This document shows, in pieces, positions 2,234-61,638 of a DNA stretch of 64,000 bases. The notes beneath the pieces were generated by a model that saw only the letters and a list, made by a program, of their open reading frames with translations, had not been told where the DNA came from and did not search any database. Location: the NCBI GenBank assembly GCA_007693455.1, contig REDP01000167.1, positions 16,799 through 80,798 of the forward strand, written 5' to 3'. Source of the stretch: Planctomycetota bacterium (lineage in GTDB: Bacteria > Planctomycetota > UBA11346). The position numbers and the translations under genes are program-made. Numbering within the stretch: position 1 is the stretch's first letter; every line of letters starts with the position of its first letter.

Positions 2234-3868
2234 ATGTCTGACGACACTATCACCATCAATATTGACGGCGTTGATCGCCAAGTGGACAAAAATCAGCAAT
2301 TAATCCAAGCGCTGGCCCAAGCTGGCGTGGAGACGCCGCATTTTTGCTACCACGAGGATTTGGGCGTGGCGGGAAACTGCCGCATCTGCCTGGTTGAGGT
2401 GGATGGCCCGCGCGGTCCTGCACTGATGATTAGCTGCCATTTGCGCCCCATGCCAGGAATGGTTGTACGCACCGAAGCCACTTCCGAAAAAGTGGTGAAG
2501 GCGCGTAAGGGCGTCATGGAATTCCTTCTGGTAAATCATCCCCTGGATTGCCCTATCTGCGATAAGGCTGGTGAATGTACTCTGCAAGAGCATTATATGA
2601 CCAGCGGCCGTCATGACAGCCGGGTGACCGAAGACATTGGCAAAGCTTATAAAGGTGGTCCTGAGCATCGATTCACTGACACCAAAGGGGTAGAACGCGG
2701 CGGCAAGCATATCGATCTTGGCCCTACCGTGGTGTTGGATCAGGAGCGCTGTATTTTATGTGATCGCTGCACCCGCTTTATGCGAGATGTGGCAGGTGAC
2801 GAACAGCTCTACATTGCGGGCCGCGGTGATCATGCCTACATCACTACCTTTCCTGGCGAGCCCTTGGACCATGCTTATGACCTCAATGTTACCGACATCT
2901 GTCCCGTGGGGGCTCTGACCGGCAAGCATTTTCGCTTTCAGCAGCGGGTGTGGTTTCTGCAAAAAACCAACTCCATCGCTCCTGATGACAGTCTTGGCGC
3001 CAATATCACCATAGAGCACCATCGTGGGAAGGTCTGGCGTTTGATGCCGCGGCGCAATCCCCATGTCAATAAGAGCTGGATTCACAACGATACACGTCTC
3101 TTGTACCGCCAATTGGATGATAACCGCTTGATCCAAGGCGAGCATCGTGGTGCTCCTTGCACCTTGTCGGAATCAATGGTCGCTGCTGGCCAAGTGCTAC
3201 GCACTGCAGGCAAGATTGCGGTGGTAGCCAGTGGACATCTAAGCTGTGAAGACAATGCCGCATTATTGGCCTTGGCGGAATCGTTTGGTGATCGCGCTGA
3301 TATGTATAGCGGATCATGGTTGCCCGTAGGTGAGGGCGATGGTATCGCGCGCTCTGGTGACCCCGTAGCCAACCGTAAGGCCTTGGCTATGATGGGGCTG
3401 ACTGAAAACCTTGATCAACTCCCCGAGCGCGCAGGCGACTACGACTGCTTGTTGGTTATGGGTCATGATCTTTGGGCGGCAGATCCCCAGCGAGCTGCTG
3501 CTTTGGAACAGATCACCCATCGCATCGTTCTTGATTCTTGGCGCACCGCAACCGCGCGGCAAGCAAGCATCGTGGTTCCCATTCGTTGCTGGGCAGAGAT
3601 CCGCGGCACTATGATCAATTGTCATGGTCGGATTCAAATGCTGAACCCTTGTCCAGTCTGTGCCGATGATGCCCTGGAGCCTGCCTGGCAGGTACTCGAC
3701 CGAATTAGCGGTCAGGCCTGTGAGAAGCCCTTGGGTCTCGCGAGCCAAACCCAGGCTTGGAAACTGGTGCAGCAGCGCATACCCGCCTTGGATGGCTTAG
3801 CCTATCGTCATATCGGGCCGCTGGGTGCGGTTGTCGAATCATCCCCCGTTGAGGAGGCTCAGGTATGA
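2234..3868 (+). CDS. nuoG: NADH-quinone oxidoreductase subunit G (short, about 545-aa form)
   Basis: 2Fe-2S motif CYHEDLGVAGNCRICLVEV; 4Fe-4S motifs HPLDCPICDKAGECTLQ and CILCDRCTRF. The listed ORF starts at TTG 2228. ATG 2234 lies 7 nt after GAAGG and is preferred. Confidence 0.92.
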   Translation: MSDDTITINIDGVDRQVDKNQQLIQALAQAGVETPHFCYHEDLGVAGNCRICLVEVDGPRGPALMISCHLRPMPGMVVRTEATSEKVVKARKGVMEFLLVNHPLDCPICDKAGECTLQEHYMTSGRHDSRVTEDIGKAYKGGPEHRFTDTKGVERGGKHIDLGPTVVLDQERCILCDRCTRFMRDVAGDEQLYIAGRGDHAYITTFPGEPLDHAYDLNVTDICPVGALTGKHFRFQQRVWFLQKTNSIAPDDSLGANITIEHHRGKVWRLMPRRNPHVNKSWIHNDTRLLYRQLDDNRLIQGEHRGAPCTLSESMVAAGQVLRTAGKIAVVASGHLSCEDNAALLALAESFGDRADMYSGSWLPVGEGDGIARSGDPVANRKALAMMGLTENLDQLPERAGDYDCLLVMGHDLWAADPQRAAALEQITHRIVLDSWRTATARQASIVVPIRCWAEIRGTMINCHGRIQMLNPCPVCADDALEPAWQVLDRISGQACEKPLGLASQTQAWKLVQQRIPALDGLAYRHIGPLGAVVESSPVEEAQV

Positions 3869-12183: not shown

Positions 12184-12215
12184 GGAGTGCTCTTGGAGCC
12201 TGGTGAGTGACCATG

Positions 12216-12350
12216 CTGGGCGGTGCAAAGATCGCCCCCGCCGGTCCCCAGATAGGCCCACAAAAAACGCTTTGAATGGGTTTCATTGCGCTAAAGGCTT
12301 GCCTCGCGAAGCGGGCATTCCTCCGCCATGGCGAGCTTTAAGTCGCTCTG
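12216..12350 (+). mobile_element. MITE-like element, copy A (divergent subfamily)
   Basis: Aligns along its length to the other copies (CTGGGCGGTGCAAAG ... CGCGAAGCGGGCATTCC ... GCGAGCTTTAAGTCGCTCTG). Flanked by AGTGACCATG / GTTGACCATG (8/10). Intergenic between the thioesterase and dnaG. Confidence 0.7.
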
Positions 12351-12451
12351 GTTGACCATGTCGGACAGAGATTGCAGTGGCGCAGAAGCCTGTATACATG
12401 CAGAAGTATACTGTTCCACCGCAGCGAACGCCGTAGACTGAAGAGGGAACA

Positions 12452-17409: not shown

Positions 17410-17532
17410 TACGCTTTCTCACACAGAGGGTGTGTATTCTCGTGATTGTAGCTTGGGAATCCTCCGGTCCCCAGTGTAGTAATGACAGGTGTGGATATTT
17501 CCATCCAAAGTATGGTGGCCTACTTCATAGTT

Positions 17533-17674
17533 CAGGGCGGCTCAAAGCTTGTCCCCGGGATCGCCGATCTCCTGATCGGCCTGCGAAAACGCCCTGAATA
17601 GGGCGCTTTTTGCGCCAAAAGCATACACCGCGAAGCGGGAATTCCTTACCCAAGGTGAGCATTGAGCCGCCCTG
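17533..17674 (+). mobile_element. MITE-like element, copy B
   Basis: CAGGGCGGCTCAAAGCT ... AGCATTGAGCCGCCCTG termini. 10-bp flanks CTTCATAGTT / CTTCATGGTT (9/10). Internal hairpins are conserved. Confidence 0.9.
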
Positions 17675-17695
17675 CTTCATGGTTGAGACTAACAC

Positions 17696-18596: not shown

Positions 18597-18673
18597 GGTT
18601 CCACAAGGCTGATGCGCGGTCATCGTGTCTCTGGAGGTACTGATACAGCCTCAAGGGAAGGCCCTCCTGTTCT

Positions 18674-18814
18674 CAGGGCGACGCAATGCTTGTCCCTGCG
18701 AGCGCTGATTCCTGATCGGCCGGCAAAAACGACCTGAATAGGGCGCTTTTTGCGTTAAAAGCATGCACCGCGAAGCGGAAATTCCTTACCCAAGGTGAGC
18801 TTTGCGACGCCCTG
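18674..18814 (+). mobile_element. MITE-like element, copy C
   Basis: CAGGGCGACGCAATGCT ... AGCTTTGCGACGCCCTG termini. 10-bp flanks CTCCTGTTCT / CTCTTGTTCT (9/10). Confidence 0.9.
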
Positions 18815-18868
18815 CTCTTGTTCTTGGATGCACCGTTGCCTCCAGTCTAAAACTTGCATACTACCATT

Positions 18869-31180: not shown

Positions 31181-31323
31181 CAGGGCAGTGTAAAGCCTGC
31201 CCCCCGAGACTGCCCATATCCAGATCGGCCCGCAAAGACGCCCTCAACAGGGCGTCTTTCGCCCAAGCCATATCCCCCGCAAAGCGAGCATTCCTTCCCC
31301 ATGGCAAACTTTGCGCCACCCTG
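31181..31323 (+). mobile_element. MITE-like element, copy D (divergent subfamily)
   Basis: CAGGGCAGTGTAAAGC ... AACTTTGCGCCACCCTG termini. Perfect 9-bp central hairpin AGACGCCCT/AGGGCGTCT. Flanks only loosely similar (AATAGATGGT / AACATGGATG). Confidence 0.75.
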
Positions 31324-31357: not shown

Positions 31358-32938
31358 TTAGGTGGTCAGAAAAGCCGCCCAGAGTATGCCCAGGAAGCCG
31401 ATACTGGCAATGATCACTACTGGGATATAGGGCATGTGCCCATCGCGTTCCATCGCCTTGCCAAAAAGGAAGAATACGAGGGGGTGAATGAGGAAGGGCA
31501 TGGAGAAGATAAATGGTATCAAGAGGGCTGCTTGATCACCAAACATACCGCCCTGAGTTGCCGCAAACAGTCCAAAGTGAGACAGGCCCGATGATACTGC
31601 CATAGCCGCAAAGTTGAGCGGCATGCCTCCCAAATGGAGGAGTAGAAAGCCGCCAAAGAGGGCGGTGATCTGCCAGCCAAAGGAAAACTGCATTAGGGCT
31701 GCAACTTCGCGACTGTCGTCGCCATACGAATGCGCCATGCGTTTGAGTGACCACAGGGTTAAGAGCATGCCACAAGCCAGTAATATCAAGGTTGGCCAGA
31801 GGCTGAGATACCCTTGGGTAGCACTCATGGCAAGTATGGAAAAGACGAATATGTGGCCAAAGAAGGGCACATTGATCATAATCGGAGCTCGACGGGCGGC
31901 GATCCCGCCCATATCTCCCGCGGTACACGCGCCAGTGAGACCTGAATGGGAAAGCGAGCCTGCCATACCAGGAGCAAGATTGCGGGCGTGATTGGTTTTG
32001 CCGAGAATCATCAGCAAGGCAATGCCGCCAAACATCCAAAACATTTGTCCAAAAAAGCCATAGGCTAAGACGGCATTCATGCCGCTAATGGTAAAGGCCT
32101 CGCTGATGCGCGATCCACCGATCATAAAGTTTGCAGCCAATACCACAGGCAAGCCAGCAAACAGGAGGGCGCGAATGGTGGGCCCATAGCGCCAGCGATA
32201 ACAGCATGCGCCAAGACCGGCGGCAATGATCATGGCGAAAAAAATCTGTGGGAGGGCAATCATGGGTTTTACCCATTGGGCGCAGTGATGCGATAGGGCC
32301 AAAATGCCGATTACGGCCATGATTTCTACCACGCCCATCTGAAAATAGCGTCGCTTGTCAGAAATTTGCGCCTTGTGGTCGATAAGTATAATAGCGATAA
32401 CTAAGCCCATATAGGCAATCAAAGGGTAAGTATACCCCAGATCACCAATGCTTGCCCCTATAAGGTGACGAGCCAATGCCTCTATGCCAAGGAGAAGGAA
32501 AAACGAGCGTAGGACGAAAATTAAATGGGTGCGCCCAGTGCCGAGAATGGTTTCCTCTGTATTCAAAACCACCGTATCATCGGGAGGAAGGGTGATTTTC
32601 CCAAAAATTTTGCGCAGTTCTTGGCCGCCTACAAAAAAGGACACTATGAGAGCAACGATGGTAGCTCGAGCCACCAGATCAATAAGCGGGAATTCGCTTA
32701 AACCCGGGCTTGATACACCCGTTTCCCGCATGATAAAACCCATGCCCAAGCCAAAGATAACAATGATAAGAATGGGCGAATAGCGGGTCCCCGCAACGAC
32801 GGTACGAGCTACCAAAACCATGGGGATAAGCAGAAACAGGGATAAGAGGAACTGATTAAGCACCAGTATCCCGGCTCCCTGATGTACCAAAGATCCATCC
32901 ACGCCAAAGCCCTCCTCACCAATGGGAAACCCTACCAT
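31358..32938 (-). CDS. Polytopic integral membrane protein, probable transporter of unrecognised family
   Basis: 526-aa ORF, hydrophobic throughout with a dozen or more TM-like segments by eye. Follows the methyltransferase on the same strand. Confidence 0.6.
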   Translation of the reverse strand: MVGFPIGEEGFGVDGSLVHQGAGILVLNQFLLSLFLLIPMVLVARTVVAGTRYSPILIIVIFGLGMGFIMRETGVSSPGLSEFPLIDLVARATIVALIVSFFVGGQELRKIFGKITLPPDDTVVLNTEETILGTGRTHLIFVLRSFFLLLGIEALARHLIGASIGDLGYTYPLIAYMGLVIAIILIDHKAQISDKRRYFQMGVVEIMAVIGILALSHHCAQWVKPMIALPQIFFAMIIAAGLGACCYRWRYGPTIRALLFAGLPVVLAANFMIGGSRISEAFTISGMNAVLAYGFFGQMFWMFGGIALLMILGKTNHARNLAPGMAGSLSHSGLTGACTAGDMGGIAARRAPIMINVPFFGHIFVFSILAMSATQGYLSLWPTLILLACGMLLTLWSLKRMAHSYGDDSREVAALMQFSFGWQITALFGGFLLLHLGGMPLNFAAMAVSSGLSHFGLFAATQGGMFGDQAALLIPFIFSMPFLIHPLVFFLFGKAMERDGHMPYIPVVIIASIGFLGILWAAFLTT

Positions 32939-35610: not shown

Positions 35611-37611
35611 ATGCCGAGAGGTTTTGGCGGTGGTGGACGCCATCAAGAACACGATCCAGCCGAATTGGCACGGATCAATAAACTTCGCAGTAGTCGTCAG
35701 CGTTTTCGCTACTTCCAAGCACAATGGCGTAAGCCGCGAAGTTCCCAGAACGATGCCGCTGAGTCACCTGCGTCAGCGGGACGAAGTCATTGGCGTCGTG
35801 GTCTAGAGTGGCTGCGACCGCTACGACGCGGCATTATACTCGTTTTTGTTCTAGGCTTCTTCTATACGCTCCTTGATGCAGGCTGGCCTATTCTTATTGG
35901 CTGGATGATCAATGTGGTAGAAGGAGCAGGGGATCAGGTTCCCATCTTGGGTGAAACCTCTGCCCGTCACATGCTTACCGTTATTGGCCTAGTGGCCCTA
36001 GCAACTGTTATTGCTTCCCGTGCCATAGGTTTGCTGCGGGGCGTCATTCTCCATCAGCTCTCCTTGCGTGTGGCCCATCACATCCGCAGCTCCCTCTACG
36101 ACAAGCTCATTCACCTGCCTCTGGCGCGCCTCAATGAGCTCAAGAGTGGCGGCATTGTCGCCCGCCTCTCTAGCGATGTGGATCATACCGCCAATTTGCT
36201 GCAGCAGGCAGTCGTTTCGCCCCTCTCGGCAATTATGCGCCTCCTGGTGGTGGTGAGTATCCTTTTGTTCTATTCATGGCAGTTGACGGTAATTAGCCTG
36301 GGTTTATTGATCGTTTTAGCTTTGATCCACCATCGTGCGGTTGGTCGAATACGGCCTATTTATCGCAGCAGCAGCCGCGATCGCGCATTCATCGACGGGA
36401 GAGTGGCTGAAACTTTTGGTGGCATTCGCGTGGTGCGCAGCTTTGTCCGCGAGACCCGCGAACGTCTCGATTATGGCCTGGGGCATCATACGGTGCTGCG
36501 CAAGCAAATCTGGGCACGATTGCTCCTCAATCTCTATCACTCCTTTTGGGACCTCCTCCTACCAGGGGTTCATCTTACGATTATTTGGGTAGGGGGTCTG
36601 TATGTGCTCGACGGCTCTCTGACCATTGGTGCTATCGTTACCATTCAAGTGCTCTCCTTTCAGGTCATGACTCCAGTGATGCAAATCATTCAGGCCATGA
36701 ACGAGACTCAGCGGGGTATGGCGGCTCTGGACCGAGTGAGTGAGGTACTGGACATGGAAGAGGAACTCCCCGATAGGTCGTCTGCGCAGGAAGCCCCTCG
36801 TCAGGTGACCGAGTTGGCTCTACGCGGTCTTGCCTTTCGTTACCCCCAACGGCGAACTCATCGCGATGATGTAACCCACAATCCTATGGGTGAGCCACAC
36901 CAAGAGCCAGAACAGCATGATCAGTGGGTCCTGCGTGACATTTCCCTGACGATTCCTGGGGGTACGGTGACCGCTTTGGTCGGTGCAAGTGGTGCTGGAA
37001 AAAGTACCTTAGTGGATCTGATTACGCGCATGATGGATCCCCAAGAAGGCTGTATTATGCTCAATGGGATGGATATTCGCGACCTGCGTTTGCGATCCTA
37101 TCGCAGTCTCCTTGGAGTGGTGTCTCAAGAAATATTTCTTTTTGACGGCACCGTGCGTGACAATATTTCGTATGGCAACCGTGATGCCAGTGATGCTGCT
37201 GTGGAACAAGCCGCTCGCCAGGCTAATGCCTGGGAATTCATCGGCGCGTTACCCGATGGCTTGGACACCTTTATTGGCGAGCGCGGGGTAAAGATGAGTG
37301 GCGGACAGCGCCAGCGCATTGCTATCGCCCGTGCAATTCTTGCCGATCCAGCCATACTGATTCTTGATGAGGCCACCAGCAATCTTGACAGCGAAAACGA
37401 ACAGTTGATCCAGGAGAGCCTCAGTCACCTCATGCTGCATCGCACAACGATCGTGGTCGCCCATCGCCTAGCAACCATACGAAACGCCGATCAGATTGTC
37501 GTTTTGGCGCAGGGTGCCATTGCTGCCATGGGCACACATCAAGAGTTGCTGCAACAGGGGCCCGGACACCCTTATTATGACATGGTACAACGTCAAGAGC
37601 TTCTCAGCTAA
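35611..37611 (+). CDS. ABC exporter, fused permease/ATPase (MsbA/ABCB-like)
   Basis: Six-helix TMD followed by Walker A GASGAGKST, signature SGGQRQR and Walker B ILILDEATS. Confidence 0.92.
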   Translation: MPRGFGGGGRHQEHDPAELARINKLRSSRQRFRYFQAQWRKPRSSQNDAAESPASAGRSHWRRGLEWLRPLRRGIILVFVLGFFYTLLDAGWPILIGWMINVVEGAGDQVPILGETSARHMLTVIGLVALATVIASRAIGLLRGVILHQLSLRVAHHIRSSLYDKLIHLPLARLNELKSGGIVARLSSDVDHTANLLQQAVVSPLSAIMRLLVVVSILLFYSWQLTVISLGLLIVLALIHHRAVGRIRPIYRSSSRDRAFIDGRVAETFGGIRVVRSFVRETRERLDYGLGHHTVLRKQIWARLLLNLYHSFWDLLLPGVHLTIIWVGGLYVLDGSLTIGAIVTIQVLSFQVMTPVMQIIQAMNETQRGMAALDRVSEVLDMEEELPDRSSAQEAPRQVTELALRGLAFRYPQRRTHRDDVTHNPMGEPHQEPEQHDQWVLRDISLTIPGGTVTALVGASGAGKSTLVDLITRMMDPQEGCIMLNGMDIRDLRLRSYRSLLGVVSQEIFLFDGTVRDNISYGNRDASDAAVEQAARQANAWEFIGALPDGLDTFIGERGVKMSGGQRQRIAIARAILADPAILILDEATSNLDSENEQLIQESLSHLMLHRTTIVVAHRLATIRNADQIVVLAQGAIAAMGTHQELLQQGPGHPYYDMVQRQELLS

Positions 37612-37615
37612 GGGC

Positions 37616-37758
37616 CAGGGCGGCGCAAAGCTTGTCCCCGGGATGGCCGATCTCCTGATGAGCCTGCAAAAACGTCCTGAATAGGGAGCTTTTTGCACTA
37701 AAAGCATACTCGCGCGAAGCGGGCTTTCTTTGCCCAAGGTGAGTTTTGAGCGGCCCTG
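37616..37758 (+). mobile_element. MITE-like element, copy E
   Basis: CAGGGCGGCGCAAAGCT left end. 10-bp flanks AGCTAAGGGC / GGCTAAGGGC (9/10). The left flank contains the ABC exporter stop codon TAA. Confidence 0.9.
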
Positions 37759-37932
37759 GGCTAAGGGCTTGGAGACTGTAATTGGAGCCCATATAGGTGC
37801 ATTAGAAATTGTTGCGGTGCGGGACAGCAATGGCAAAGCAGAACCTTGCTGCTATCCCAGGGCACGTTTTGGGACGCCCCTGGCTGCTGTCCCATGGGGC
37901 TCGGGCTATTCAAGGGATTCATGCACGCAGCA

Positions 37933-41023: not shown

Positions 41024-41065
41024 CCTTCGGCTCGTAATCACGCGTGCTAAGACGGTGCAATGACC

Positions 41066-41104
41066 AAGGCCGCCTGGAGATACTCCAGGCGGCCTTGTGT
41101 TTTT
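41066..41104 (+). terminator. Rho-independent terminator after fusA
   Basis: Perfect 13-bp stem AAGGCCGCCTGGA / TCCAGGCGGCCTT with a 5-nt loop, followed by GTGTTTTT. Confidence 0.85.
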
Positions 41105-41134
41105 ACGGTGTACCGAGTGGGCTGTGTATTCCAC

Positions 41135-41278
41135 CAGGGCGGCGCAAAGCTTGCCCCCGGGATCGCTGACCTCCTGATCGGCCTGCAAAAATGACCTGAA
41201 CTAGGGTCATTTTTGCGCTAAAAAGCATGCACCGCGAAGCGGGAATTCCTTACCCAAGGTGAGCTTTGCGCCGCCCTG
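41135..41278 (+). mobile_element. MITE-like element, copy F (best-preserved exemplar)
   Basis: Perfect 17-nt TIR CAGGGCGGCGCAAAGCT / AGCTTTGCGCCGCCCTG. Perfect 10-bp target-site duplication TGTATTCCAC (41125-41134 and 41279-41288). Confidence 0.95.
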
Positions 41279-41371
41279 TGTATTCCACTGGAAATCGTTG
41301 CGATCGACATTATGATCCGATATGATGAGTTGTGAGAATTCCGTTACATCACAGTTAGTGCAGTGGTACCC

Positions 41372-44906: not shown

Positions 44907-45045
44907 TAGGACAGCTCAAAGCTTGTCCCTGGCATCGCCAATTTCCAGATCGGCCAGTAAAAAGCATCCTAGATGAGAATCTTTGCACTAAAAGCATGCC
45001 CCGCGAAGCGGGCCTTCCTACCTCAATGGCACGCTTTTACACCCA
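44907..45045 (+). mobile_element. MITE-like element, copy G (degenerate)
   Basis: ACAGCTCAAAGCTTGTCCCTGGCATCGCC and AAAAGCATGCCCCGCGAAGCGGGCCTTCC align to the family. Termini are eroded and no clear TSD is seen. Lies in the SulP/ppc divergent intergenic region. Confidence 0.55.
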
Positions 45046-50154: not shown

Positions 50155-50258
50155 CAGGCAGCGGTAAGGAGAGGATCGACCCGCGAGGTTTTTTTGTGCT
50201 ATAAGGATGCCCCATCAAGCGGGCACCCTTCGCCCATGGCAAGCTATGGGTCGCCTTG
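50155..50258 (+). repeat. Probable internally deleted, degenerate MITE copy (H)
   Basis: The right half CAAGCGGGCACCCTTCGCCCATGGCAAGCTATGGGTCGCCTTG resembles copy A (CGAAGCGGGCATTCCTCCGCCATGGCGAGCTTTAAGTCGCTCTG). The left half is only loosely similar. No TSD. Confidence 0.35.
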
Positions 50259-57213: not shown

Positions 57214-60200
57214 ATGGCACAGCAACGTACCAGCCATACCAAACGCCAACATGTTGAATACCAAGAAGACATCCCTGATATTGATCAGGGCTTAAACGAC
57301 CTCACGAAGGAAACAACGGTCCGCGACCTCATGCGCCGCGGGCAGCATAAAAAGCTGCGAACCATTCGCGAGCGCGATCTCAAGGAATGGATCGCTACGG
57401 CTCTGCGTCGGGTCATGGTGACCCATGAGGACACCTTCACCGACGAGCAAAAGCAAGAAATGGTGGCGAAGGTGCAGGAGGAAATGCAGCAGCGCATTAA
57501 AGCCCTGCAGGAACAAGCCAAAGCCGCCGAAGCTGGTGCCCAGGAGTGGCGCAGTCAATATCAGCAAGCAGTGAGCGAAGCGGGCGAAAACCAGCAATTA
57601 CACGATGTACTGGCCAATCTCCAAGCCAAATATGAGAACGCCCAAGCCGAACGTGAAGATGCGGTGGCCCGCCTTCTCGACATGGAAGATGATTTCAACG
57701 AAAATAAATCTATGTTGGCGACCACCATAGCGGAAAAAGAACGTCTCCAGACCACCAACCGCGAACTCTTTATGCGCTCGAGTCAAGTGATCGAGCCAAT
57801 TCTAGCCATTGATAACGAATACTATCAGGGCAGCCATCAGGAAGATACGCCTGGTGACAACGAAGATGATAGCTCTTTCTTCCGTGACTTTGAAGTGAGT
57901 ACGCATGTCTTGGAAAGCCTGCAAGGGGATCTGGCCAAGGGTACCGCTTTGACTCCCGCTGGGGCAGCAACCACAGACGGAGAAATGGCCGAACCTACTC
58001 CCGTTCAATTCCAAGAAGAGCATCTCCTCACCCTCTATGAAGCCAGCGACCAGGCTTTGGCGAAACTCAGTGGAATGCTGGATGTGGAAACCACCGAAGA
58101 GCTTGAAGAGCACATTGGTGATGGCCAAACGCATATAGAGAATGAACCAATCGCCAAGTTGCATCACAAAATTATCATGCTGGGTAAGGGCATTGGCCTG
58201 CAGCGTGATCGCCTGCAGCACCTGGAAGAAGAAAATGCCTCCTTACGTAGTCAGCAGGAAGCAGCCTCTGGCAATGAGACATCACAAGCCGCAGCCCGAC
58301 ACATTGCCGAGACCTTAGCCGCTGCCGCGATTCCTTTTCACCGTGAGACTGACGCCCAGACAGTGGACGCCGAACTACAACAAAGGGCTGCCGCACTGGA
58401 GGAAACCCTTGCCGAAGATGGTGAAGACGCAGCCGCCCTACAAGAACGCGCCGACGCTGTTATTGCAACGATAGTAGCAGAGCGTCAGCGCATGGAATCA
58501 AGCCTGCAAGATCAGCTCCGTCGCGCCGCCGCGGCGGAAGACGCCTTGCGTAAACTTGCGGGGGCAGCAGCAGCAGCAGTATGTGCCGAGGGCGAAGAAG
58601 ACGACTCCGCCCTGGGTACCGCCACGGAAAACCTGCGTAAAGACCTCGATACCCCTGCCGATCTTGTCCCTGGCGGCAATGAACAATTGCTTGCCGACAT
58701 TAGTGTTGATGGCGCACAAGTTATTGCTCAACTGCGTGAAGAACGGGATGCCGCCCGAGGACAAGCGGCTGCGGCGCGTGCCAGTGAGCGCGTCCTTGCC
58801 CAACGCCTCTTAGAGCTTGCTGTCGACTCCGATGATGATGCTGTCCTCGGGGTTGCCTCGCAGTTACGCCAAGCCATGGACAATGATCCTGAAGCCTCGG
58901 TTGCCGACCACATCGCGGCCACTTCTCAGGCCCTGGCCGAACATGGCACAGGTGTAGCTGAATCGCAGGGAGCCAGTGCTGCCGAACTGGAAGAAGTACA
59001 GCAACGCCTTGCCGCCGCTGAACAGGCCGCTGAAGAGCATCAAGGCACGGTGAAGGAATTGCGTGAGCGCAACGAATCACTGCAAGAACAATTAGATCAA
59101 CGCGACAGTGAGTTAGCCGAATTGGAAACGCGTCTGGCCGATGATGAGGATCAACTGGCTGCTGTGCGCGAAGAACTCGCGGCCGCCAAGGACCACGTCA
59201 CTGCCTTACAGGCAGGGCAAGAGGGTGTTGCGCAAGCACTCTCACAGGCCGCCAAGGAACATCACCAGGCCCTGGCCGACCTGGAGCAAGACGGCGAAGA
59301 GGACGATGCTTTGGCACATGCCGCCGAAGAGGTGCATGAGCTTGTCTCCGCCCCTGGCGAACACGATACGGACCAAGTCCTCAATGCCACCCGTGGGGTG
59401 ATCTCCCGCCTTCGCGTAGCCAATGATGCCTTGGCGCAACGACTGCGCCGTAAAGAGCAAGAGTTGGGTGAAGTGCGTCGTAGCACGGAGAGTAAAGCCG
59501 AAAGTTTGGATGAACTTAAAAAAGCTTTGGCTCATGCCGAAGCAGAGCGCGAACAAAGCAAGCACGATGCCACAGCCCTGCAAGAAGAGGTGGCAACCCT
59601 CAATCAGCGCATCGATGCGGCCGCCGAAGAAGCGTTCGAAAAGGATGAGGCGTTGGATCAATTACGTGCGGCGGCAAAAGATGCCGAAGAGCGTTTGGCC
59701 GAGCAGAAACACACGGTAGAGACGCTCAATCAACGTATAGAAGCCGCTGCCGAAGATCTGCTGAGCAAGGAAGAAGAAATCGAACAACTGCGCGCAGCCA
59801 ACCAAGAAGCTGCCGCACAAGCGGATGAATTGGCGCAACTGCAAAAACAGCGGGACGAGTTAGCTGATTCATTGCAATCTGCCGAAGAGGCTCGTGAAAA
59901 GGCGCAATCTGATCTTGCGCAGACGCAAGCAGCGCTCTCTGAGAAAGAGGCAGAGCTTGAGCAACTGCGCACCTCCATCAAAGACGCCGAAGAGCGCCTT
60001 GCCGAGCATGAACACACCTCGCAGACGCTCAATCAACGCATTGACGCTGCCGCCGAAGATCTGCTGAGCAAAGAAGAAGAAATCGAACAATTACGCGCGG
60101 CCAACCAAGAAGCTGCCGCACAGGCTGATGAATTGGCACAGCTCAAGGAACAACTCAGTGACAAAGAATCGGCGCTGAATACCACGCAAGAGGAACGAGA

Positions 60201-61638
60201 CAGCGCACGCACCGATTTAGATAAGGCCCAAGAGGCACTTACTGCCAAGGAAACTGAGTGCGTAGAACATGAACAAACGATCGCCAAACTACAACCACTT
60301 GAGCAGCGTTGTGAGGAGTTGCAGCAGCAAGTAGCTGAAGCGCAAGAGAATAAAAGCGCCCAAGACGAAGAAAATGAAGCCCTGCGCATGCGCGTGGATG
60401 CAATGGAGGGTGAGTGTGCTGAATTGCGCAACGAGCGTGACCAACTCCGGCAGTCGGTTAGCGAGCTTGAAGAACAACTCAAAGGGGCTCAAGCCAACGG
60501 TCAGCAGGTCGAAGAACTCCAGCACAGCTTAGGAGATTCACAAGAGCGTTTGCAGCAACTTGAGGCAGCGTTGGCTGAACGGCAAACGGCCTTAGAGCAT
60601 AGCCAACAAGAACTCAGTGAGCGTGACTCTACTTTGGCGCAAGCCCAAGAGAACTTGGCGGAAAAAGAGGCTGCCTTGGCCCAGGCCCAGAGCCAAGCGC
60701 ATGCCGCTGAGGAGGATAAACAGTCACTCCAAGAAAAACTGCAGGCCCGCGATCAAGAATTGGCCGAGGTTGAGGGGCAGCTCAAAGAGCAAGAACAGCG
60801 TCTCAATGAACTCGAAGCGGTAAAAGCCGAATTGGCAGAAACCCAGCAAGAACGGGCTGCGGTTCAGGAACGCCTCCAGGAACTTGAGCAACTCCTTGCT
60901 GACCGTGATGAACACATTACGGGGAAAGAGGCAGAGTTGACTCAAGCCCATGAACGCGAGCAGCTGTTGAAGGATCAGCTGGAGGCTCTCCAGGCTGAAC
61001 TGGATCACCTGCGGCGCTCGCTGCGCAACGCTGAAGCACGCATTAGCGAGCTTGAAGCCCGGGAGCAGCAATTGGAAGCAGACTTTGAGAAGGACCTTGC
61101 TGATGTACGACAGCAACTCAATGATGAGGAAGCCGCTCACGCAGCCGTACGTCAACGCCTGGATTCCTACGAGGAAGATCATGTGGAAATTCTCGCAACC
61201 CTGCGTGGTCGCCTGAAGGATGCTGAATCGGCCCGTGGACGCCTGGAACAACAGATAGAGGAACAGGGCGCAGAGCTTGCCAGTGTGCGACAAAGTCAGG
61301 AATACGATGCCAATCGTCTGCAGCGTCTCGATGAGGAGCTCGCTGCCCTGCAATTAGAACGCGATGAACTTCGTCAACAGCTCAAAGCAGTCGAACAACA
61401 TCTCGAAGAAGAGCGCAATACACGGCAGGGCTGGGAAGCCCGCAAGGAGCGTTTGCAACAGGATCACCAAGAGCAGATCCAAGGATTGCGTGAACGCCTG
61501 CAGAAGGCTCGCGATGACCTCCATGCCCTGCAATCAGAGACCCGTCATCTCCGCGAGGATAATGTCGGTTTACGCTCACGCCTTCGCACCCTTGAAGCCA
61601 ACGATGGAGATGATCAGAGCAACCCAGACATGAACTGA
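57214..61638 (+). CDS. Giant coiled-coil protein CC2 (1474 aa), N-terminal module paralogous to CC1, internally repetitive
   Basis: GAAGGAG upstream of ATG 57214. Nearly the whole length is E/Q/A/L/R-rich heptad-like sequence. Shares two conserved N-terminal blocks with CC1. Confidence 0.85.
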   Translation: MAQQRTSHTKRQHVEYQEDIPDIDQGLNDLTKETTVRDLMRRGQHKKLRTIRERDLKEWIATALRRVMVTHEDTFTDEQKQEMVAKVQEEMQQRIKALQEQAKAAEAGAQEWRSQYQQAVSEAGENQQLHDVLANLQAKYENAQAEREDAVARLLDMEDDFNENKSMLATTIAEKERLQTTNRELFMRSSQVIEPILAIDNEYYQGSHQEDTPGDNEDDSSFFRDFEVSTHVLESLQGDLAKGTALTPAGAATTDGEMAEPTPVQFQEEHLLTLYEASDQALAKLSGMLDVETTEELEEHIGDGQTHIENEPIAKLHHKIIMLGKGIGLQRDRLQHLEEENASLRSQQEAASGNETSQAAARHIAETLAAAAIPFHRETDAQTVDAELQQRAAALEETLAEDGEDAAALQERADAVIATIVAERQRMESSLQDQLRRAAAAEDALRKLAGAAAAAVCAEGEEDDSALGTATENLRKDLDTPADLVPGGNEQLLADISVDGAQVIAQLREERDAARGQAAAARASERVLAQRLLELAVDSDDDAVLGVASQLRQAMDNDPEASVADHIAATSQALAEHGTGVAESQGASAAELEEVQQRLAAAEQAAEEHQGTVKELRERNESLQEQLDQRDSELAELETRLADDEDQLAAVREELAAAKDHVTALQAGQEGVAQALSQAAKEHHQALADLEQDGEEDDALAHAAEEVHELVSAPGEHDTDQVLNATRGVISRLRVANDALAQRLRRKEQELGEVRRSTESKAESLDELKKALAHAEAEREQSKHDATALQEEVATLNQRIDAAAEEAFEKDEALDQLRAAAKDAEERLAEQKHTVETLNQRIEAAAEDLLSKEEEIEQLRAANQEAAAQADELAQLQKQRDELADSLQSAEEAREKAQSDLAQTQAALSEKEAELEQLRTSIKDAEERLAEHEHTSQTLNQRIDAAAEDLLSKEEEIEQLRAANQEAAAQADELAQLKEQLSDKESALNTTQEERDSARTDLDKAQEALTAKETECVEHEQTIAKLQPLEQRCEELQQQVAEAQENKSAQDEENEALRMRVDAMEGECAELRNERDQLRQSVSELEEQLKGAQANGQQVEELQHSLGDSQERLQQLEAALAERQTALEHSQQELSERDSTLAQAQENLAEKEAALAQAQSQAHAAEEDKQSLQEKLQARDQELAEVEGQLKEQEQRLNELEAVKAELAETQQERAAVQERLQELEQLLADRDEHITGKEAELTQAHEREQLLKDQLEALQAELDHLRRSLRNAEARISELEAREQQLEADFEKDLADVRQQLNDEEAAHAAVRQRLDSYEEDHVEILATLRGRLKDAESARGRLEQQIEEQGAELASVRQSQEYDANRLQRLDEELAALQLERDELRQQLKAVEQHLEEERNTRQGWEARKERLQQDHQEQIQGLRERLQKARDDLHALQSETRHLREDNVGLRSRLRTLEANDGDDQSNPDMN
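59677..60150 (+). repeat. Intragenic tandem duplication with an exact 303-nt (101-codon) period in CC2
   Basis: 59677-59846 aligns without gaps to 59980-60149 (KDAEERLAE..TLNQRI.AAAEDLLSKEEEIEQLRAANQEAAAQADELAQL). Most differences are at third codon positions by eye. Confidence 0.9.

Follow-up and report, generated by a model that had tools for sequence, protein, structure and literature searches.

The 64,000-nucleotide stretch of planctomycete contig REDP01000167.1 analysed here (the 64-kb window) encodes DnaG, CarB, EF-G, an FHA-GAF adenylate cyclase and a SpoIIE-type phosphatase. It also carries eight copies (seven full, one half) of a repeat of about 142 bp that has the features of a MITE (miniature inverted-repeat transposable element). 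The repeat is bounded by 17-nt terminal inverted repeats (TIRs; CAGGGCGGCGCAAAGCT), copies with both ends measure 135-144 bp, below the roughly 600 bp that bounds MITEs, and all eight copies are on the plus strand. The TIR 17-mer occurs 11 times in the window at up to three mismatches, against 0.42 occurrences expected from shuffles. When the copies are aligned together with their flanks, similarity ends exactly at the TIR tips, and the adjoining 10 nt are duplicated and different for each copy. No other dispersed repeats were found in the window.

A preliminary description of this DNA had listed seven copies. Blastn and nhmmer searches recovered all seven at the same coordinates (E = 1e-32 to 1e-44) and added a partial eighth copy; further copies lie in a metagenome-assembled genome (MAG), GEM2.Bin49. 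The perfect TIRs and perfect 10-bp duplication described for copy F hold, as do the 9/10 flanks of copies B, C and E. The window copies and their target-site duplications (TSDs) are as follows.

12216-12350, plus strand: MITE copy A, 135 bp, with a small internal deletion; nhmmer E = 4e-33; TSD at 12206-12215 and 12351-12360, match 8/10
17533-17674, plus strand: MITE copy B, 142 bp; nhmmer E = 3e-44; TSD CTTCAT(A/G)GTT at 17523-17532 and 17675-17684, match 9/10
18674-18814, plus strand: MITE copy C, 141 bp; nhmmer E = 9e-42; TSD at 18664-18673 and 18815-18824, match 9/10
31181-31323, plus strand: MITE copy D, 143 bp, old and diverged; nhmmer E = 1e-32; TSD recognisable solely with an offset
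37616-37758, plus strand: MITE copy E, 143 bp; nhmmer E = 6e-42; TSD at 37606-37615 and 37759-37768, match 9/10
41125-41134, no strand: left TSD of copy F, TGTATTCCAC, same letters as 41279-41288
41135-41278, plus strand: MITE copy F, 144 bp, with perfect 17-nt TIRs and a perfect 10-bp TSD; youngest-looking window copy
41135-41151, plus strand: left TIR of copy F, CAGGGCGGCGCAAAGCT, 0 mismatches to the pattern; identical to the right inverted repeat (IRR) of the ISAs1-family insertion sequence (IS) on contig L182, described below
41262-41278, minus strand: right TIR of copy F, 0 mismatches, reverse complement of the left TIR; with the next base, 18/18 identical to the L182 IRR
41279-41288, no strand: right TSD of copy F, TGTATTCCAC, same letters as 41125-41134
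44907-45045, plus strand: MITE copy G, 139 bp, old and diverged; nhmmer E = 8e-34; TSD match 0/10
50187-50257, plus strand: partial eighth copy, right half only; nhmmer E = 8e-9, model positions 71-141

The copy F site at 41125-41288 thus reads TGTATTCCAC / CAGGGCGGCGCAAAGCT ... AGCTTTGCGCCGCCCTG / TGTATTCCAC. Copies D, G and A are the most diverged, with 57-76% identity to the other copies. Two independent Logan contigs (run SRR7901804) show 100% identity to the window and end inside copies E (contig L001) and F, which indicates that the repeats are real and multicopy in that sample.

Flanks were compared for 28 two-ended elements from three genomes: the window, GEM2.Bin49 and the MAG CAZTGE01. 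The set comprises seven window copies, 15 full-length 142-bp elements from GEM2.Bin49, one composite 266-bp element with a nested insertion, two minis of 67-68 bp and three 163-bp elements from CAZTGE01. The flanking 10-mers are identical at 10/10 positions in 13 of the 28 elements and match at 8/10 or better in 23, and three of the remaining five reach 10/10 after a 1-nt boundary shift. The TSD sequence is different at every locus. In a control that paired each left flank with the right flanks of other elements, the mean match was 2.66/10, and a match of 8, the maximum, came up in one of the 756 pairs. Beyond the flanking 10-mers, the next 10 nt match at no more than 5/10, so the duplication is exactly 10 bp. 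Where orthologous stretches are common to the window and GEM2.Bin49, neither side carries the insertion. The empty copy F site, with a single 10-mer, is predicted to read ...GGGCTGTGTATTCCAC joined to TGGAAATCG...

No reading frame is open across the copies, and tblastn with two ISAs1 transposases (Escherichia coli YhhI and a planctomycete transposase) detected no transposase in the window and had no match in the fetched loci. All window copies sit between long open reading frames (ORFs). On these points (intergenic placement, no conserved frame, no transposase in the window), as on the locus-specific duplications as a hallmark of transposition, the preliminary description is borne out. TIRs, 10-bp TSDs, absent coding capacity, dispersed copies and the lack of a window transposase together support its proposal of a non-autonomous element, a MITE that would be mobilised in trans.

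The parent family can be narrowed by the element ends. ISAs1 elements have inverted repeats (IRs) of 14-22 bp that start with CAGGG, and 10-bp direct repeats (DRs; PMC11946415). ISArsp11 has the IR CAGGGCTGATGCAAAGTCG and a 10-bp DR (PMC6305408). DRs in the family span 8-10 bp, 10 bp being typical. We re-examined annotated plasmid copies of ISAs1 from Aeromonas salmonicida and of ISAs1-family ISs from Tistrella, Rhodococcus and Azotobacter, and all four plasmid-borne members have CAGGG ends and perfect 10-bp duplications. The IRs of the A. salmonicida element read CAGGGCGGGATCGCAC.../CAGGGCGGGAGCACAC..., and their first 8 nt (CAGGGCGG) are identical to the MITE end. The window MITE has the CAGGG terminus, an IR of 17-19 bp and direct repeats of exactly 10 bp, as does the ISAs1 family (ISAs1, ISEc1/H-repeat, ISArsp11, ISPmar4) in terminus, IR length and duplication, but the window elements are only about 142 bp long and encode nothing.

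GEM2.Bin49 carries, alongside the MITE, a second repeat with the same terminus. It occurs at seven contig ends that always break at the same points, as expected for a high-copy repeat. The inward frame has its TAA stop 20 nt from the terminus; this geometry agrees with ISAs1 right ends, in which the stop codon lies 19-28 nt from the tip. A 22-aa peptide from this frame, used as bait, led to protein P0037 (PF01609), whose Logan contig (L182, run SRR12522838) contains a complete 1,891-bp IS at 182-2072. Its IRR, CAGGGCGGCGCAAAGCTCGG, matches the MITE TIR at 17/17 positions, the right end of copy F at 18/18 and the right end of a GEM2.Bin49 copy at 19/19, and its left inverted repeat, CAGGGCCACTCAAAGCT, matches the MITE TIR at 14/17. 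Over 86 nt, L182 and the IS end of GEM2.Bin49 share 93% identity. In the fetched loci, TIR pairs spaced 0.3-4 kb apart enclosed no full-length IS.

The coding region of the L182 IS consists of two overlapping frames joined at GAA AAA AAG (slippery site 1492-1498). The junction is a canonical A_AAA_AAG -1 slippery heptamer in the 0 frame, and a -1 shift yields a 592-aa protein. This transposase scores 220 bits on the full NCBIfam model NF033564 (transpos_ISAs1, ISAs1 family transposase), where the cut-off is 70. It carries PF13808 (DDE_Tnp_1_assoc), PF01609 (DDE_Tnp_1) and an N-terminal DruA/DUF4338 domain, which has been termed GNAT-like (PMC10853773). The preliminary description had called for a search for an IS with the same TIRs and pointed weakly to IS4-like elements; such an IS is now in hand, from another sample, and the CAGGG ends, the 10-bp DRs and the score of its transposase replace that pointer with the ISAs1 family.

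A second complete copy of the partner IS lies at 1-1891 of L183, a contig from another run, with the same layout and ends and an A-run from 1309. The 120 listed homologues are mostly 410-480 aa long (ORF1 only), and only about six are fused forms of 590-636 aa, a distribution that suggests a conserved programmed frameshift; the split layout is seen in L182, L183 and L184. A two-frame -1 layout is not the usual description of ISAs1, a family that usually has a single ORF. The partner IS differs further in its extra N-terminal DruA/DUF4338 domain and in its length, which is beyond the 1,200-1,500 bp that ISfinder gives for the family. A sister IS on contig L185 (77% amino acid identity, 64% GC) has the IRR CAGGGCGACTCAAAGCT, which is identical at 17/17 positions to the right TIR of the 163-bp MITE in a high-GC MAG. 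Taken with the match between L182 and the 142-bp MITE, this means that IS ends and MITE ends co-vary across lineages. We regard this co-variation as the strongest indirect evidence that these transposases may move these MITEs.

We conclude, with a probability of roughly 0.88, that the repeat is a non-coding MITE moved by an ISAs1-family transposase. The DDE transposase of the IS would mobilise the MITE in trans by recognising the 17-19-bp terminal repeat CAGGGCGGCGCAAAGCT(C/T), inverted at both MITE ends, each of which resembles the right end of the IS. Insertion would proceed through a 10-bp staggered cut, and repair would leave a 10-bp duplication that differs at each locus. The IS is probably present in the genome from which the window derives, and the family may be currently active. 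A Planctomycetota MAG protein, TVR17651.1, is 97% identical to ORF1 of L182, and its accession lies about 4,000 numbers from that of a window protein, TVR13492.1; we take this as suggestive only of a partner IS in the window genome.

Several points weigh against this conclusion. MITE and IS are alike over the terminal 17-19 nt only, the MITE interior being unrelated to the IS. The autonomous IS is known from related data, and the L182 copy is frameshifted and may be regulated or dead. Furthermore, the nearest homologue of the flanking gene is just 44% identical, too distant to offer an empty orthologous site.

The family is present in at least three planctomycete genomes. Scanning 185,579 species genomes with a TIR 19-mer gave scattered single chance matches and many matches in two MAGs, namely Planctomycetota GEM2.Bin49 (REDX01; at least 25 contigs) and CAZTGE01 (labelled Brocadiaceae; 3 contigs). 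The GEM2.Bin49 loci hold at least 16 further MITE copies. The window has a GC content of 54.3%, against 60.1% for GEM2.Bin49 and about 70% for CAZTGE01, and both MAGs represent organisms distinct from the one behind the window. Orthologous proteins of the window and GEM2.Bin49 are 64-76% identical, whereas their MITE copies are up to 94% identical (copy B versus a GEM2.Bin49 copy), and the window copies resemble the GEM2.Bin49 consensus as closely as they resemble one another. Such identity is not what vertical inheritance of neutral DNA would leave. It points to a tightly conserved master copy, or else to horizontal spread of the element itself or of its IS.

Size variants occur with the same kind of ends. 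Two mini-MITEs of 67-68 bp with perfect TSDs (L036 928-995; L067 6374-6440) are internal deletions of the second of two subfamilies and keep little beyond both ends. The roughly 70% GC MAG labelled Brocadiaceae holds, at three loci with perfect 10-bp TSDs, a 163-bp MITE whose ends (CAGGGCGGCTCAAAGCTCGC / CAGGGCGACTCAAAGCTCGC) are related:

L003 1605-1767: 163-bp MITE
L010 4853-5015: 163-bp MITE
L055 1758-1920: 163-bp MITE

Tandem MITE pairs with the same 10-bp TSD between and after the copies lie at L060 2-264, L063 2-197 and L039 5538-5766. The two L060 copies are about 97% alike over their common stretch, the second L063 copy is a 44-nt fragment at a contig end, and at L039 the tip of an old subfamily-2 remnant adjoins a young copy of subfamily 1. 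These pairs suggest insertion beside resident ends, or unequal crossover at the TSDs. At L065 2971-3083, a different inverted-repeat element of about 113 bp (TIR CAATGGCGGGAAGCTAAGG) is nested in a MITE copy at 2856-3121 and has its own 10-bp duplication, ATCGCCGATC. It represents a second MITE-like family of GEM2.Bin49, and the window holds none of it.

An alignment of 23 copies separates the two subfamilies and places the young window copies in subfamily 1. As RNA, copy F folds on the plus strand at -79.9 kcal/mol (z = -9.2), and the minus-strand fold has -78.4 kcal/mol (z = -6.8). The fold, whether of RNA or of single-stranded DNA, is a long hairpin with a terminal stem and three sub-hairpins:

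41165-41182, plus strand: left-arm hairpin, consensus GCCGATC-TCCT-GATCGGC, from the minimum free energy structure; 93% of cells paired in 23 copies
41185-41216, plus strand: central hairpin with an A-run and a T-run (GCAAAAA...stem...TTTTTGC), from the folds; terminator-like in both directions
41232-41242, plus strand: right-arm mini-hairpin CCGC-GAA-GCGG (GCGAAGC core, 41234-41240), from invariant alignment columns

Across the 23 copies, 89.6% of cells in the terminal helix are paired. For the whole structure 89.5% of cells pair, against 33-47% in slid controls. The right-arm core GC..AAGC is invariant in 23/23 copies, the first loop base being G in 20, A in two and C in one, and its GCGAAGC motif is one that we take to be an unusually stable DNA mini-hairpin. 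Compensatory changes are seen at TIR position 10 (G-C/T-A) and in the central stem, where T-A becomes C-G between subfamilies. These few, subfamily-level events are modest evidence for the structure, and the covariation counts rest on a hand-projected structure, the RNAalifold consensus of the 23-copy alignment being implausible owing to gaps. A5 and T5 runs bracket the central hairpin, which looks like a bidirectional intrinsic terminator, and that of copy B was flagged as terminator-like by a simple terminator scan. The left-arm region at 41163-41182 and the equivalent columns contain two to three GATC sites within 20 nt. We speculate that this cluster could allow methylation or SeqA-type control, by analogy with IS10 and IS50. 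The Rfam comparison suggested in the preliminary description gave no match at gathering threshold across the whole window, and the element matches no Rfam family. At E <= 1 none lies inside the element, and weak sub-threshold small-RNA matches fall solely on the EF-G terminator.

The copies occupy varied positions relative to genes. Copy A lies upstream of dnaG, and copy D lies between the convergent genes carB and 31358-32938. Copy E is located between an ABC-transporter gene (35611-37611) and phoU. Its left TSD (37606-37615) includes the TAA stop of the transporter gene; the element thus inserted on a stop codon, and the duplication preserved the end of the ORF, which is intact. A strong intrinsic terminator at 41065-41097, with a 15-bp stem, 11 G-C pairs and a T-run, follows the EF-G gene, and copy F lies 37 bp further downstream. 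The SpoIIE-type product of the gene neighbouring copy F is 100% identical to TVR13492.1 (EA401_06785, Planctomycetota bacterium), and its next-closest relative is just 44% identical. Copy G sits where two genes diverge, in their promoter region. The mechanical ORF whose 5' extension takes it in overlaps the divergent gene and has in-frame starts just past the element. Several copies are located 4-125 bp past stop codons. The copies may influence their neighbouring genes.

A different origin would be a MITE derived from another DDE family that yields 9-12-bp duplications, such as the IS4 subgroups IS231, ISH8 and IS4Sa, or IS5/IS903. A 10-bp TSD is also within the range of some IS4 subgroups in the ISfinder tables, and ISAs1 and IS4 transposases have PF01609 in common. 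However, the MITE termini are CAGGG, unlike the CT/CA(T) ends of the IS4 groups, and the IS whose terminus is identical reaches 220 bits on the ISAs1 equivalog model and contains PF13808, a domain specific to ISAs1. The four bona fide ISAs1 members show the same combination of CAGGG and 10 bp. We therefore hold such an origin to be very improbable. We give almost no credence to the idea that recombination or a RAYT-type enzyme, and not DDE transposition, has spread the copies as a structured repeat of the REP/BIME or another kind. Intergenic placement, strong secondary structure and high local density would fit it, but REPs are 20-40-bp palindromes that lack TSDs, whereas 23 of the 28 elements examined here have locus-specific 10-bp duplications, and these statistics exclude such explanations. 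In addition, the ends match those of an IS, and the size variants retain the same ends and TSDs.

Compatible with an ISAs1-mobilised MITE, and possible though doubtful, is that copies have been retained or oriented as cis-acting mobile bidirectional terminators or mRNA-end structures and are partly domesticated. This role is predicted from fold and position. The central hairpin with its A- and T-runs is conserved, with the compensatory T-A to C-G change and the flagged copy B, and the 4-125-bp distances after stops and the plus-strand orientation of 8/8 window copies are in line with it. In tandem-gene contexts, 10/11 copies are co-directional with the flanking genes and so point with transcription (two-sided binomial p ~0.01; crude ORF-based gene calls). 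The sample is small, however, and a further terminator would be redundant for copy F, given the strong native one upstream. The covariation amounts to few events and reflects a subfamily split. Because the terminator-like hairpin and the TIRs are symmetric, this role leaves the orientation bias unexplained. Orientation could instead be set by replication through strand-biased insertion, and not by transcription. The 8/8 window copies keep the plus strand even between convergent or divergent genes, the whole window has positive GC skew, and two copies on L009 have the same orientation despite differing local genes. Against this, orientation relative to local GC skew is 9:10 at GEM2.Bin49 loci, L029 has two copies in opposite orientation, and we know of no strand requirement for DDE transposition with TIRs. 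We consider control by replication unlikely.

The window MITE resembles several known systems. Classical bacterial MITEs share their ends with a resident IS and have a structured interior that is unrelated to it; they are intergenic, vary in size and may influence transcript ends (PMC3184786). Correia/NEMIS, RUP (IS630-Spn1), Nezha, P. fluorescens R0/R2 and the Tn3-derived TIMEs are tied to their IS by the ends only, as is the window MITE, but these belong to other parent families and have a TSD of TA, 2 bp or 5 bp instead of 10 bp. REP/BIME elements are likewise structured, high-copy intergenic repeats; they lack TIR-delimited units with target duplications and depend on RAYT tyrosine transposases, whereas the window MITE has TSDs and 142-bp units. 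As summarised from Chen et al. 2008, the Chunjie MITE of the deltaproteobacterium Geobacter uraniireducens Rf4 is A+T-rich, 178-235 bp long, with 21-bp TIRs, 9-bp DRs and a very stable fold, and is inserted beside ABC-transporter and PhoU genes without disrupting them (PMC3184786, PMC10969869). Both are bacterial intergenic MITEs with TIRs, direct repeats and a stable fold, and copy E also lies between an ABC-transporter gene and phoU. The window element differs from Chunjie, as so described, in its length of about 142 bp, G+C richness, 17-bp TIRs, 10-bp DRs and occurrence in Planctomycetota.

Two candidate identities were considered and rejected. Chunjie, suggested by the ABC-transporter/PhoU context and the 54% GC, was ruled out by size, TIR, DR and composition. 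An enterobacterial ERIC-like repeat was ruled out by the gene content (FHA-GAF cyclase, SpoIIE) and by protein matches to a Planctomycetota MAG.

Further collections were searched for the family. Blastn against plasmid and phage collections gave no match. In JGI metagenomes, an internal 23-mer of the candidate IS end had 0 matches, and the TIR 19-mer had 91 single matches, none with a partner TIR or TSD, which makes all of them chance. A viral-contig scan gave 2 matches, assumed to be chance. Our full-text literature search found no paper tying a MITE to ISAs1, and for Planctomycetes and MITE it found no description of such an element. The lack of matches in Rfam, in the plasmid, phage, JGI metagenome and viral collections and in the searchable literature is consistent with, but does not prove, a new family. 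As far as we have found, it is the first MITE tied to ISAs1 and the first in Planctomycetota. MITEs mobilised by a DDE IS are a thoroughly known kind, and this one would not surprise a specialist.

Tentatively, the observations could be joined into one account. The first ISAs1-tied MITE family would have been exchanged recently between planctomycete lineages (about 70% protein identity, copies up to 94%) and kept parallel to transcription because it supplies transcript-end structures or mobile bidirectional terminators. The transposase of its partner IS, which combines a DruA/GNAT-like N-terminal domain with -1 frameshift control, would tend to insert beside resident ends. We think this combination doubtful as a whole.

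MITEs are the least catalogued bacterial mobile elements, and the chemistry of ISAs1 transposition is essentially unstudied. A high-copy 142-bp substrate with sharp ends, exact 10-bp duplications and a candidate transposase offers a ready system for studying it. The copies also break short-read MAG assemblies, as in the two Logan contigs that end inside them, and yield spurious small ORFs, so that recognising them would improve annotation. The identity of copies across lineages could serve as a marker of horizontal exchange among uncultured planctomycetes.

The window additionally contains a 164-bp direct repeat, 85% identical, at 59677-59840 and 59980-60143, inside a 1,474-aa ORF (57214-61638). 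The pair resembles a protein domain present twice and has no relation to the MITE.

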